Shown here one piece after another: positions 14,537 through 54,059 of a stretch of 64,000 nucleotides of DNA. Source of the DNA: Candidatus Bathyarchaeota archaeon (GTDB lineage: Archaea; Thermoproteota; Bathyarchaeia; Hecatellales; Hecatellaceae); assembly GCA_052246995.1 (NCBI GenBank), contig JBQPWD010000002.1, positions 32,001 to 96,000 on the forward strand, in the 5' to 3' direction. The notes under the pieces were generated by a model. The model did no database searches. It saw nothing but the letters and a program-made list of their open reading frames with translations, and was not told the DNA's origin. Every line of letters begins with the position of its first letter. Position 1 is the stretch's first letter. A program made the position numbers and the translations under genes.

Positions 14537-14628
14537 CCATTTTGGGCTTTTTCCCACCAGAAAGGTTAAGTATTTTTTCATAAAGTTTCTTTGTAAAGTA
14601 GTCAACATAGGATGCGGGGTAAATTGTT

Positions 14629-14847
14629 ATGGTTAAATGCTCAAAATGCGGCTCGGAAGTTAAAAACTTAACAAAAACTTGGAGTGTAACCTTAGGGAAG
14701 GAAAGGAAAGTAAAAATTACCTTTGGATCCTTTACATGTGAGAAGTGTAGTAGAAAGTTTAGGGCGTTAATAAAAAAGGAACCTGTAGTTGATGTTTACC
14801 AGAAATCTAAACCCTCCCCACCGCCATCAATAAGAATGATAGTTTAA
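14629..14847 (+). CDS. Cren7-like chromatin protein, zinc-ribbon type
   Basis: CxxC..KTW..GKERKVKITFGSFxCxxCxRKFR matches the Cren7 K-x-W...G-x-F...FR pattern; small and basic. Confidence 0.7.
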   Translation: MVKCSKCGSEVKNLTKTWSVTLGKERKVKITFGSFTCEKCSRKFRALIKKEPVVDVYQKSKPSPPPSIRMIV

Positions 14848-21833: not shown

Positions 21834-22550
21834 CTAGCTATCAGGTTGTAATCGAACTGTGAAGGGTTTTTGTTCTTCACTTTTCTTCTCTGATTGGACT
21901 TTAGGTAAGTAATATGTTGACTCTTCTCCTATGGGCGGTTCTGTTTTTGCTGGTTCCTCTTCAATCGGAGAAATAGACTCCAAGCATTTTTTAACATCCT
22001 CTTTTTCTCTAAACGCTTTCTCTATTTCTGATAAAATGTACTCGCTTGCTATTATATATGCTTCCTCACTTAACTCGCCTGTTCTACGTTGAACCTTGAG
22101 ATATCCTAAGAATCTTTCAAAGCTTCTTATGTTTCTATCTACTTCTTCCATCCTTTCAGAAAGCTCTAATGAGATTTCTTTTTGTCCCTCTTCAAGCTTG
22201 CTTATGATTTCCTTGTATTCCTTATAAAATTCTTCGTAAACATAGTCAGGAATTTCTTTATTTTTTAGAAGCTCCTCTAATGCTTTAAACCTGCTATAAG
22301 CTAGCTGAAATTCTTTTCTAAATCTTTCAGCTTCAACTTTCCAGCGTGGTGTAATAACAATATTGTCATCTCTAATTGATATTTGCGGTTGTGAGAATTC
22401 TTCAAATCTCCCTCCACAGTCAACGCCAACCGAGTGTAGTTTACCAGAGAGGTCTAAAGTTAAACCAACAACATATCCTAGATGCCTTCCGTAAATATCC
22501 TTTGCAGGTTTTCCTATAAACTTGCGAAAAGCTTCTCCTTGAATACTCAT
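21834..22550 (-). CDS. cdvA: Cell division protein CdvA
   Basis: FIGKPAKDIYGRHLGYVVG PRC-barrel N-terminus, TPRWKVEA, coiled coil, GELSEEAY, disordered linker and terminal beta-strand KPFTVRL. Confidence 0.88.
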   Translation of the reverse strand: MSIQGEAFRKFIGKPAKDIYGRHLGYVVGLTLDLSGKLHSVGVDCGGRFEEFSQPQISIRDDNIVITPRWKVEAERFRKEFQLAYSRFKALEELLKNKEIPDYVYEEFYKEYKEIISKLEEGQKEISLELSERMEEVDRNIRSFERFLGYLKVQRRTGELSEEAYIIASEYILSEIEKAFREKEDVKKCLESISPIEEEPAKTEPPIGEESTYYLPKVQSEKKSEEQKPFTVRLQPDS

Positions 22551-22588
22551 AAAAAATTCACCTAAAAATTGGTTTAATTAAGTAATTT

Positions 22589-23185
22589 TTAGCTCATTCC
22601 AGTAAAAGCTCTCTTTATTCTCTCAAAGATGGATAAATGCTTTGTGGTTTTCTCCTCACCTACAACTACCCTTTTTTCCTCACTAGCTTCACCAAACTCC
22701 TTTATTTCTTCTATTGGAGAGAGCGGTTCTTCAATTTTTGCCACTGAACCATCATCAAGCATTTCTTTAATAACTTTTGTAAGTTCGCCAGGATCCACAT
22801 TTAACCTTGTTGAACACTCCTTTATGTTTAGAAGTCCATTATGAGTTTTAATGTAATCATACACTTGGTCTTTAAGTTCTTTCTCTCCATCTCCATGTTT
22901 TATAGGGATTTCTTTAACAATGGTTAACTTTATAACTTCATCCATGGTTAAGTTAAAGGTTGGTCGTTGTTCACTGGTTAAACCACTTGTTTGAGATGTT
23001 GTGTTTTCTGTAGGTTGAGTTTTGGTTTCAACCTCAAGCTTCGTTGCTCTTCTAAACTTATGGTTACAATCTTTACACTGATAAACGGTAACGTGTATAG
23101 GTTTTCCTCGCCCACTTTTGGGGATAACGTCCCAAGATTTGTTTGCATTAACATTTTCACTGTTACATCTTGGGCATTTTATCAA
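22589..23185 (-). CDS. Cren7-like zinc ribbon fused to a CdvB-type winged helix and a C-terminal amphipathic helix
   Basis: CPRC..KSW..PKSGRG..CKDC.HKFR; YDYIKTHNGLLNIKECSTRLNVD aligns ungapped with the CdvB C-terminus; ends SIFERIKRAF; GGTGA SD; 38 bp upstream of cdvA. Confidence 0.8.
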   Translation of the reverse strand: MIKCPRCNSENVNANKSWDVIPKSGRGKPIHVTVYQCKDCNHKFRRATKLEVETKTQPTENTTSQTSGLTSEQRPTFNLTMDEVIKLTIVKEIPIKHGDGEKELKDQVYDYIKTHNGLLNIKECSTRLNVDPGELTKVIKEMLDDGSVAKIEEPLSPIEEIKEFGEASEEKRVVVGEEKTTKHLSIFERIKRAFTGMS

Positions 23186-52870: not shown

Positions 52871-53440
52871 TTGAATAGAAAATTTTTAGCTGCGCGTGGA
52901 GACCTTGTAGAGAAGATTAAATACCTTGCTAAAAAAAGAAACTTAACATTGTACTCTGTTGTAAACGAAATCTTAGAACAGTCTTTAAAGTTAGAAGCTA
53001 CAGGTAAAACTCTTTCACAAGTTATTGAGGAATACAACATAGTTAAGGCTGTTAAAGATGCAGGCTTCATCCTAACACCTAGAATACTATGGTATGAGCT
53101 TCTAAAAAAACAGGATAATTTAAACATCACCAAATTTTGGAGTGAAACTGGAGAATGGTTTGGAAAATACTGTAAAACAGTTTTCCCCCAAGAAGATATA
53201 CAAAAACTTTTAGAGAAAGTTATCAGCATAGTTTTCTGGGACCTTTCAGAGTGTATTTTAAAAATGGATGGTGAAAAAGCTTTAATCCGATGTATAAGCT
53301 CAAACTACTCAGAACTTCAAACAAACATTTTATGGGCCTTCCTTTCAGGAATGATGAAGGCTTTCAACTATAAAGCGTTAAAAACCGAGGTAGTTAAAGG
53401 AATTGTTGCCGCAACCTTTGTAAGAGAAATAGGTGGATAG
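52871..53440 (+). CDS. Ribbon-helix-helix protein with V4R-like C-terminal domain, paralog 1
   Basis: KFLAARGDLVEKIKYLAKKRNLTLYSVVNEILE RHH pattern; W..TGEWFGKY. Confidence 0.6.
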   Translation: MNRKFLAARGDLVEKIKYLAKKRNLTLYSVVNEILEQSLKLEATGKTLSQVIEEYNIVKAVKDAGFILTPRILWYELLKKQDNLNITKFWSETGEWFGKYCKTVFPQEDIQKLLEKVISIVFWDLSECILKMDGEKALIRCISSNYSELQTNILWAFLSGMMKAFNYKALKTEVVKGIVAATFVREIGG

Positions 53441-54059
53441 GGAAGTGTCAACATCAAAAAAGTTTGTTGCTGTACGAGGAGACCTTTTACAAAAAATAAT
53501 TGAAATATCCAACAGGAAAGGTAAAACTGTTTATGGATTTGTAAATGAAATGTTTGAACAGGCAATAAAAGCTGAAGAACTTGATTCAACCCTACCTGAA
53601 ATTGTGGATTTTTACGTTTTAGTTAAAGCTTTAAGAAAAGCTGGAGCAGCACTCATCTTCTCAGACATTTTAAACTACTCCATAAAAAGGTTGTATGAGG
53701 TTGAAAAGGAAAAGCTTTTAAAAAGCTGGTTTTCCTCAGGTTTATGGTATGGAAAATTTTTAAAAGCAAAATTTCAAGAACCACTAGAAGTTTTAAAAAA
53801 GGTTTTAACAAGCCTCTTCTTCTTTGAAATCTCTGAAGTTGAATTTTTAAACACTGGTGGAAACAAGTTTACCCTTAAAGTTATCTCTCCAAACCAGCCT
53901 CAAGAAAACACTGAGCTTTTATCAAGCTTTCTTGAAGGATTTTTAGACGCATTAGAATTTAACATCTTAAACAGGGATTGCTGGCGTGGTATAATAGTTT
54001 TTGAAGTTGAAAAAAGAACAAAACTTTCAGAAATGGGCCTCACAGACATGGAAGAATAA
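53433..54059 (+). CDS. Ribbon-helix-helix protein with V4R-like C-terminal domain, paralog 2
   Basis: KKFVAVRGDLLQKIIEISNRKGKTVYGFVNEMFE; W..SGLWYGKF; similar to 52871 along its length. Confidence 0.6.
   Translation: MDREVSTSKKFVAVRGDLLQKIIEISNRKGKTVYGFVNEMFEQAIKAEELDSTLPEIVDFYVLVKALRKAGAALIFSDILNYSIKRLYEVEKEKLLKSWFSSGLWYGKFLKAKFQEPLEVLKKVLTSLFFFEISEVEFLNTGGNKFTLKVISPNQPQENTELLSSFLEGFLDALEFNILNRDCWRGIIVFEVEKRTKLSEMGLTDMEE

Follow-up and report, generated by a model that had tools for sequence, protein, structure and literature searches.

A cdvA-linked protein with a Cren7-type zinc ribbon, a CdvB-type winged helix and a terminal amphipathic helix: a candidate DNA, CdvA and membrane adaptor in one family of Bathyarchaeia

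The 64,000-nucleotide (nt) stretch of a Candidatus Bathyarchaeota archaeon genome analyzed here (the window, whose positions are used for all coordinates below) carries, directly upstream of the division gene cdvA, a gene for a protein of 198 amino acids (aa). The protein consists of a Cren7-type zinc ribbon, a linker, a CdvB-type winged helix, a second linker, and an amphipathic helix (Table 1), and we consider it a candidate adaptor of the Cdv division machinery. The gene heads a cluster that continues through cdvA into genes for an FtsX-like permease and an ATP-binding cassette (ABC) ATPase. Its orthologues begin at the equivalent site, immediately ahead of CPRC. The stop codon occupies 22589-22591 and the cdvA ATG lies at 22550; therefore, the two genes are separated by a gap of 38 nt, and these coordinates confirm a first-pass annotation of the window, in which the gene was said to stop 38 bp upstream of cdvA on the same strand.

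Table 1. Features of the cdvA-linked cluster and of the separate cdvB gene in the window
Feature	Position	Strand	Description
cdvA-linked gene, 198 aa	22589..23185	-	TTG start; from the open reading frame list and translation
Zinc ribbon, residues 1-52	23030..23185	-	Cysteines C4, C7, C37, C40; net charge +7
Linker 1, residues 53-82	22940..23029	-	Low-complexity, T/Q/S/P-rich; predicted disordered; poorly conserved
Winged-helix module, residues 83-152	22730..22939	-	Acidic, net charge -3, isoelectric point (pI) 5.0
Linker 2, residues 153-183	22637..22729	-	Acidic, net charge -4; predicted local distance difference test (pLDDT) ~48-69
Terminal helix, residues 184-198	22592..22636	-	Cationic amphipathic (LSIFERIKRAF); conserved
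Spacer between the 198-aa gene and cdvA	22551..22588	-	38 nt; GGTGA Shine-Dalgarno-like word 8 nt ahead of the cdvA ATG
cdvA, 238 aa	21834..22550	-	PRC barrel, CdvA coiled coil, C-terminal tail
E3B-like terminal strand, CdvA residues 226-238 (EQKPFTVRLQPDS)	21837..21875	-	Expected ligand of a CdvB-type winged helix
FtsX-like permease, 173 aa	21241..21762	-	Third gene of the cluster; Pfam FtsX 28.1 bits (cut-off 25.5)
ABC ATPase, 217 aa	20574..21227	-	FtsE/LolD/MacB kind; fourth gene of the cluster; ABC_tran 7.3e-35
CdvB, 314 aa	54961..55905	+	C-terminal winged helix at residues 267-311; 32 kb from the 198-aa gene

The N-terminal ribbon, for which Pfam gave sub-threshold generic zinc ribbons and nothing else, was connected to Cren7 through a chain of profiles. 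The Pfam Cren7 family (PF11520, curated cut-off 25 bits) was run over 201 genomes of the phylum and had matches above the cut-off in 72 of them, which comprised canonical cysteine-free Cren7 as well as many four-cysteine proteins of 47-80 aa. We used 13 four-cysteine proteins, all passing this cut-off, as profile intermediates. The ribbons of 10 cdvA-linked family proteins aligned with these intermediates in hhalign (98.6%, E 7.5e-16, 50 columns), and the intermediates aligned with 30 canonical cysteine-less Cren7 proteins (98.9%, E 2.6e-17). Among the 20,436 six-frame open reading frames (ORFs) of the genome, the four-cysteine Cren7 profile found a 74-aa paralogue (8e-12) and the 198-aa gene (3.1e-9), followed by the next ORF at 9.5e-4. 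A CxxC...CxxC/H pattern is present in 169 of these ORFs although just two match the Cren7 profile, indicating that the ribbon match is no effect of the cysteine knuckles.

The residues aligned by hhalign include K16, W18, V20, and P22 of the ribbon, which correspond to K24, W26, L28, and P30 of Cren7, and K23, I30, F44, and R45, which correspond to K31, V36, F50, and R51. According to the accessible text of the structural studies, K24 and K31 of Cren7 touch DNA, L28 intercalates, V36 lies at the DNA interface, and K42 and K48 lie at its edge (PMC8927968, PMC5042384). The net charge of the ribbon ranges from +5 to +8 in all 10 family members. In the AlphaFold2 (AF2) model, the ribbon forms three long strands (residues 12-20, 30-37, and 43-49) with pLDDT > 90, and Foldseek with the whole model listed the Cren7 structures 2jtm at rank 13 (target template modelling score, TM, 0.56) and 3kxt_A at rank 34 (TM(target) 0.62), with no match at E ≤ 0.001. 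Cren7 itself has been described as a descendant of a zinc ribbon, with four-cysteine forms in Crenarchaeota and Bathyarchaeota (Kaur et al. 2018, PMC5906684, accessible text). In terms of sequence, the ribbon belongs to the wider Cren7 family as a zinc-containing form that falls below Pfam's own threshold. The earlier call of a Cren7-type ribbon from the words KSW, PKSGRG, and KFR, all of which are present, is thus backed by the profile chain and the genome-wide specificity.

The middle of the protein matched the C-terminus of CdvB. BLASTP aligned residues 104-148 with residues 267-311 of the CdvB encoded by the same genome at 18 of 45 identities without gaps (E 1e-8), exactly reproducing the hand count of the first-pass annotation. 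Residues 105-148 aligned with positions 213-256 of the 260 positions of the NCBIfam CdvB profile (NF041008, E 0.0017), and Pfam gave no hit to Snf7, the core of ESCRT-III (endosomal sorting complex required for transport III), in the 198-aa protein. Therefore, the protein is not a CdvB and shares only the C-terminal module of CdvB. Within the genome, its matches besides itself were CdvB and the ribbon paralogue only. A profile built from the winged helices of 16 Bathyarchaeal CdvB proteins, with the target excluded, retrieved CdvB (8.7e-24) and the 198-aa gene (1.4e-14) from the ORFs of the genome, and the next ORF followed at 6.1e-6. When the target was included (16 of 17 rows being CdvB), the top hit among Protein Data Bank (PDB) chains was 2xvc_A (E 2.7e-5), and the next natural winged helix was found at 0.0029. 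In a VIA superposition on 2xvc_A, the module gave a Z of 6.7 and a root-mean-square deviation of 1.9 over 51 of 56 residues with 24% identity.

The AF2 model of the module comprises a strand at residues 84-89, helices at 100-114, 121-128, and 132-145, and strands at 118-120 and 148-150. The winged helix of the genome's own CdvB is likewise acidic (net charge -3, pI ~5.0), and because of its acidity the module is no fit to a DNA-binding winged helix. Judged by its profile matches, the module resembles the winged helices of CdvB more closely than those of other proteins, and the NCBIfam match, BLASTP, the CdvB-only profile, and the hit to 2xvc_A concur with the call of a CdvB-type winged helix made in the first pass. 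The strand VIKLTIV (84-89 in the model), which had been singled out there, is not peculiar to the 198-aa protein: in many CdvB proteins of Bathyarchaeia, the winged helix is preceded by a hydrophobic strand and a GGE-like turn, suggesting that this strand arrived with the CdvB module. The autoinhibition speculated upon in the first pass is thereby neither favored nor disfavored. A complex prediction of residues 78-155 with the CdvA tail (residues 197-238) scored 0.00 in two runs without controls, and counts neither way.

In a tree of 63 columns, which resolved little else, six winged helices of the family formed one group (support 76/89, 80% of bootstrap trees). A recent copy of the winged helix from the genome's own CdvB was considered as its origin and found unsupported, as the six winged helices group together and are not nested with the CdvB proteins of their hosts. 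One old capture of the winged helix fits this grouping outside the hosts' CdvB.

The protein ends in ...SIFERIKRAFTGMS. In all 11 family proteins, the hydrophobic moment of the last 11-residue window lay at 0.64-0.70 and its net charge between +1 and +3, and this window ranked top in 8 of them. I186, F187, I190, and F194 cluster on its hydrophobic face, and AF2 placed a terminal helix at residues 186-195. Residues S185, F187, and I190-F194 are invariant in six long forms, and the terminal motif is retained in the short forms described below; apart from the ribbon, it is the best conserved stretch. The amphipathic helix recognized earlier by eye is thus borne out by its conserved hydrophobic moment and by the model, which has a mean pLDDT of 78 over the whole protein and of < 50 over residues 56-79 of the first linker. 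A search with the whole protein sequence against PDB chains found nothing but noise, namely low-complexity stretches of LpqN and C2H2 fingers.

The ribbon and the terminal helix are present in all family members. The winged helix is found in the long forms, which occur in this genus, in two further genera, and in metagenomic sequences (P0009, L129/L130, and L137). The short forms of 97-123 aa consist of ribbon, linker, and helix, and are still located upstream of cdvA. A long form (P0009) and a short form (P0010) share 51% identity. A metagenomic protein of 137 aa (P0011) seemingly retains, of its winged helix, only the start of the first helix and the last strand, on either side of an internal deletion, and is possibly a snapshot of how short forms originate. 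Based on the deletion in P0011 and the identity between P0009 and P0010, the winged helix appears from these sequences to be ancestral, and was probably lost several times. A partial homologue (P0007) bears a precomputed Pfam label, PF27303.1, which may denote a recent family that spans either the tail or the winged helix.

The neighborhood of the gene is conserved. We searched 61 related genomes, of which 14, including this one, belong to the window's own Bathyarchaeia family. cdvA was detected in 12 of the 14, the other two genomes being 90% and 61% complete. In 11 of these 12 genomes, a homologue of the 198-aa gene shares the strand of cdvA and lies immediately upstream of it, and in the twelfth cdvA is located at a contig end. 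The 173-aa FtsX-like permease is encoded directly downstream of cdvA in all 12 but not outside the family, and the order of 198-aa-gene homologue, cdvA, FtsX-like gene, and ABC ATPase gene was found in all seven longer loci. The family alignment search additionally yielded 15 metagenome loci, 14 of which have the gene directly followed by cdvA; 12 of these 14 continue into the permease and the ATPase, and the other two stop at a contig end. These loci are not independent counts because several are probably the same contigs as in the family genomes. Locus searches with P0009 as the query in genome and metagenome contigs returned nothing. These results uphold, within one Bathyarchaeia family, the conserved linkage to cdvA on which the first-pass annotation had depended.

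Outside the family, 19 cdvA loci were compared. A cdvB gene with a winged helix lies directly downstream of cdvA in 17 of them, most have an ESCRT-III paralogue upstream, and a homologue of the 198-aa gene was found at none of the 19. Inheritance of the terminal helix from this upstream ESCRT-III paralogue was considered and rejected, as those proteins have FPELP-type ends.

The 198-aa gene and cdvA are probably co-transcribed. A sediment RNA-Seq run (X6) contained one contig of 1,015 nt with ~94% identity, which covers 22139-23157 and reaches from most of the 198-aa gene across the spacer into the first part of cdvA. A deletion of 3 nt that this contig shows close to the end of the 198-aa gene agrees with a 197-aa homologue (P0004). 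As it bridges both genes, the contig is a weak hint of co-transcription; a contig is no proof of a single transcript, and DNA may contaminate such libraries. Hot-spring metagenome runs of one study also contain the 64,000-nt stretch.

The product of cdvA matched Pfam CdvA (PF18822, E 5.8e-22, 78.5 bits against a cut-off of 30), PRC (5e-4), and NCBIfam CdvA (E 6.7e-31, under the equivalog cut-off). Near the C-terminus, a proline and a short hydrophobic strand with V, followed by R/H/K, were found in most of 31 CdvA frames of relatives. Binding of the CdvA E3B strand to the CdvB winged helix is a rule taken from Sulfolobus, as given in the accessible text of PMC5840170.

The ATPase of the cluster matched NCBIfam FtsE (1.1e-45) with 155.9 bits against a cut-off of 264.85 and LolD (1.2e-44), also below its cut-off, and other type VII ABC models scored alike. 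Therefore, the permease and ATPase are described here as an FtsEX-like pair rather than an established FtsEX. The CdvB protein passed the Snf7 cut-off narrowly (27.5 bits, cut-off 27.3), and its gene is flanked by a CdvB paralogue without a winged helix and by cdvC, which encodes MIT, AAA, and Vps4_C domains. Directly upstream of these three genes, two tandem paralogous genes (52871-54059, plus strand; 189 and 208 aa) belong to no Pfam family, and their N-termini resemble, to the eye, small DNA-binding domains.

The same ribbon occurs in other proteins. In family genomes it is found at the end of FtsZ/tubulin-like proteins (P0018, L106 in G002, L107 in G010, and L108 in G003), although a search of this genome with P0018 as the query gave no FtsZ-like match and no FtsZ-ribbon fusion at E ≤ 0.001. 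One of them, the 961-aa L106, is a tubulin/FtsZ-like GTPase that has a long coiled coil and the ribbon at its end. The ribbon also ends CdvA-like coiled-coil proteins of ~400 aa (L103 in G057, 1654-2877; L104 in G052, 1201-2406), whose genes lie ~2 kb from a cdvB-cdvA-cdvB cluster and are divergent to it, heads another coiled-coil protein (L105), and occurs as stand-alone proteins of ~50 aa that resemble chromatin proteins. In the window, a stand-alone four-cysteine Cren7-like protein of 72-74 aa (14623-14844, plus strand) is the genome's best match to Cren7 profiles, with the 8e-12 given above, and is probably the Cren7-type chromatin protein of this organism. In three metagenome loci (L130, L134, and L137), its homologue is located upstream of the cdvA-linked gene, at a distance of 1.5-1.8 kb.

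The FtsZ-like and CdvA-like coiled-coil fusions of these relatives are architectures reported by Kaur et al. 2018 (PMC5906684), whose accessible text describes zinc-chelating Cren7 domains fused to CdvA-like coiled coils and to bathyarchaeal FtsZ and proposes DNA anchoring in division. Hence, the statement of the first-pass annotation that no equivalent had been described was too strong. In Thermoproteales, arCOG03733 is a fusion of a zinc ribbon, a coiled coil, and a CdvA-like domain (Makarova et al. 2024, accessible text). In the literature as far as accessible, no description was found of a protein that combines the ribbon with a CdvB winged helix and a terminal helix, or of a cluster of its gene with cdvA and FtsEX-like genes, and the supplements of PMC5906684 and PMC11188069 may list this architecture. 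The link between Cren7 and division is already in print as a hypothesis, and the new elements here are the three-part architecture and the four-gene cluster.

Starting from the observed domain identities, conservation, and gene order, we infer each binding step and the cellular role as follows. With moderate confidence, we propose that the 198-aa protein is a modular adaptor between DNA, CdvA, and the membrane in the Cdv machinery of one Bathyarchaeia family. The basic ribbon would most likely bind double-stranded DNA via the three-stranded sheet and the loop that are used by Cren7. The acidic module, captured from CdvB, would most likely dock on the C-terminal strand of CdvA as in Sulfolobus, and the last 11-15 residues would most likely lie as a cationic helix on the inner face of the membrane, with flexible linkers connecting the three parts. 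The independent fusions of such a ribbon to cytoskeletal proteins in relatives speak for this reading. Many copies along DNA or a CdvA polymer would give the short helix avidity; amphipathic helices of 9-11 residues suffice for CdvB paralogues, presumably via the avidity of the polymer (Drobnic et al. 2025 preprint, accessible text). In this way, both CdvA and the chromosome would be kept at the membrane by the adaptor. Those orthologues that have no winged helix would continue to link DNA to the membrane in a Noc-type manner, and the FtsEX-like pair of the same cluster probably works with the adaptor. A wider version, in which the protein is the missing membrane partner of CdvA and also couples the chromosome to the ring, as a Noc-plus-ZipA of the ESCRT-based divisome working together with the FtsEX-like pair, seems rather doubtful to us; if true, the pair would provide a Cdv system with an FtsEX-type component for the first time.

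Several observations weigh against the adaptor. The family ribbons compared directly with canonical Cren7 reached 51% in hhalign (E 1.5e-4), and a profile from cysteine-less Cren7 alone missed the 198-aa gene among the six-frame ORFs. Pfam Cren7 had no match to the 198-aa protein at E ≤ 1, which places the protein below the membership threshold, and none at E ≤ 10 anywhere in the genome. In the ribbon, K42 and K48 of Cren7 are replaced by Q36 and H42. Foldseek ranked NrdR and RNA polymerase ribbons above Cren7, none of them at E ≤ 0.001, and VIA, whose list covered only the winged-helix part of the model, ranked 2xvc_A 27th, within ~1 Z unit of Lrp/AsnC and Z-alpha domains. The first-pass annotation had expected domain searches to point to Cren7 and to the CdvB winged helix; the sequence profiles did so for both domains, whereas Foldseek and VIA on the model singled out neither Cren7 nor 2xvc. 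The modelled strand at 84-89 might take the place of the CdvA strand in cis, the terminal helix could serve to bind another protein and not to anchor this one in the membrane, and the cdvA-linked gene family is confined to one Bathyarchaeia family in the sequences searched. In addition, many orthologues have no winged helix, and docking on CdvA through this module therefore cannot be the core function of the family. As the winged helix lies outside the conserved core, the general mechanism must work without it.

The last point bears on an alternative in which the protein is a dedicated membrane anchor of CdvA, similar to ZipA, FtsA, or SepF, whose ribbon contacts CdvA or another protein while DNA is not involved. 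In short forms without the winged helix, something else, possibly the ribbon, must then contact CdvA, and what is invariant is the pair of amphipathic helix and location upstream of cdvA. CdvA of Sulfolobus also formed filaments without membrane binding in vitro, and unidentified tethers have been speculated upon (Drobnic et al. 2025 preprint, accessible text). We nevertheless regard such an anchor as unlikely, given that the ribbon in the alignment retains DNA-interface positions of Cren7, has a charge of +5 to +8, occurs as stand-alone 50-aa chromatin-like proteins, and ends FtsZ-like proteins, where binding to CdvA makes no sense.

The terminal helix might also be read as a docking motif, which would either bind the MIT domain of CdvC/Vps4 in a MIM1-like way or serve the FtsEX-like pair as a ligand, and by which the protein would recruit or regulate an ATPase at CdvA or DNA. 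C-terminal amphipathic helices are of the MIM1 type in ESCRT-III proteins, the CdvC of this genome has an MIT domain, and the FtsX-like and ABC genes always accompany the 198-aa gene. However, the CdvB paralogues of Bathyarchaeia end in a proline-rich FPELP motif and not in such a helix, and the helix of the 198-aa protein is net positive with a clustered aromatic/aliphatic face as in membrane-targeting helices, which makes docking of this kind quite unlikely in our view.

A nucleoid-occlusion-like checkpoint, in which the winged helix acts as a negative regulator by competing with CdvB for the CdvA tail over unsegregated DNA, was a further suggestion of the first-pass annotation. It would account for a genome in which two proteins share a module of the CdvA-tail-binding type, and within the family cdvB has moved from the side of cdvA to that of cdvC. 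The short forms, however, are without a competing module, and the evidence presented here separates competition from recruitment in no way; we consider the checkpoint distinctly improbable. Transcription regulation of the cdvA operon, with the ribbon and/or the winged helix binding an operator and the neighborhood reflecting autoregulation, is highly improbable even though a small DNA-binding-type protein heads the operon and Pfam matched the 198-aa protein weakly to the winged helices of MarR and RPA_C (E 0.005-0.017). The winged helix is acidic and dispensable in many orthologues, and its likeness to CdvB puts it 8 orders of magnitude ahead of other ORFs of the genome; the conserved terminal amphipathic helix and the 30-residue disordered linkers are atypical of operator-binding repressors, and Cren7-type DNA binding lacks sequence specificity (PMC5042384, accessible text).

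The adaptor proposed here addresses two open questions, namely how CdvA reaches the membrane and how Cdv division is coordinated with the chromosome. The 198-aa gene matters because, according to the accessible text of the Drobnic et al. 2025 preprint, the membrane tether of CdvA is not known. The gene is a concrete candidate, whose predicted DNA, CdvA-tail, and membrane activities can each be separated into small recombinant pieces, and its natural forms with and without the winged helix provide built-in controls. The architecture adds to the evidence for zinc-containing Cren7 domains as DNA anchors of cytoskeletal proteins. Additionally, the conserved cluster suggests that a bacterial-type divisome module is joined to an ESCRT-type one in these archaea, and the FtsX-like and FtsE/LolD-like pair beside cdvA may deserve a study of its own.

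Compared with known systems, the ribbon is related by homology, via the four-cysteine intermediates, to Cren7 (Sso6901; PDB 2jtm and 3kxt), a chromatin protein of Thermoproteota. The three-stranded sheet with a basic loop in Cren7, a small beta fold of five strands, appears to recur in the modelled ribbon, and K24, W26, L28, P30, K31, V36, F50, and R51 of Cren7 are kept or conservatively replaced in the alignment. They differ in that the ribbon has four cysteines predicted to chelate zinc where Cren7 has a hydrophobic core, and in that Cren7 is a stand-alone protein of 60 aa whereas the ribbon is the head of a multidomain protein of 198 aa. PDB 2xvc is reportedly the winged helix of Sulfolobus CdvB with the CdvA E3B peptide, said to come from Samson et al. 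in 2011; the 'broken' wing of this type of winged helix is completed by the E3B strand. The module resembles 2xvc in its CdvB-type sequence, in the superposition, and in the retention of the terminal strand of CdvA. In contrast to that winged helix, it is free of the ESCRT-III core and has an extra N-terminal strand, as in other Bathyarchaeal CdvB proteins.

Noc of Bacillus subtilis is a DNA-binding protein that brings DNA to the membrane through an amphipathic helix and blocks division there. The conserved core of the family of the 198-aa protein similarly combines, in a setting of cell division, a predicted DNA-binding head with a short amphipathic helix of the membrane type, which is an analogy of mechanism only: Noc has a ParB-like fold, an N-terminal helix, and an FtsZ system, whereas the protein described here has a Cren7 ribbon, a C-terminal helix, and a Cdv system. 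A cationic amphipathic terminus of 10-11 residues behind a flexible linker is also shared with the membrane-targeting helices at the C-termini of MinD and FtsA and with the short ones at the N-termini of Sulfolobus CdvB paralogues. No sequence homology with these helices is claimed, and the membrane role of the helix is a predicted one here.

Among proteins with related ribbons, arCOG03733 of Thermoproteales similarly joins a zinc ribbon to a CdvA-type protein in a TACK lineage, as a single-polypeptide fusion without a winged helix or terminal helix in the form given by the accessible text. The fusions in the accessible text of Kaur et al. 2018 attach the same zinc-chelating Cren7 domain to proteins of division or of the cytoskeleton, and the role proposed for them, the anchoring of DNA in division, is the one proposed for the 198-aa protein. 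In the protein described here, the ribbon is joined to a CdvB winged helix and a terminal helix rather than to CdvA or FtsZ, and its gene lies beside cdvA and an FtsEX-like pair.

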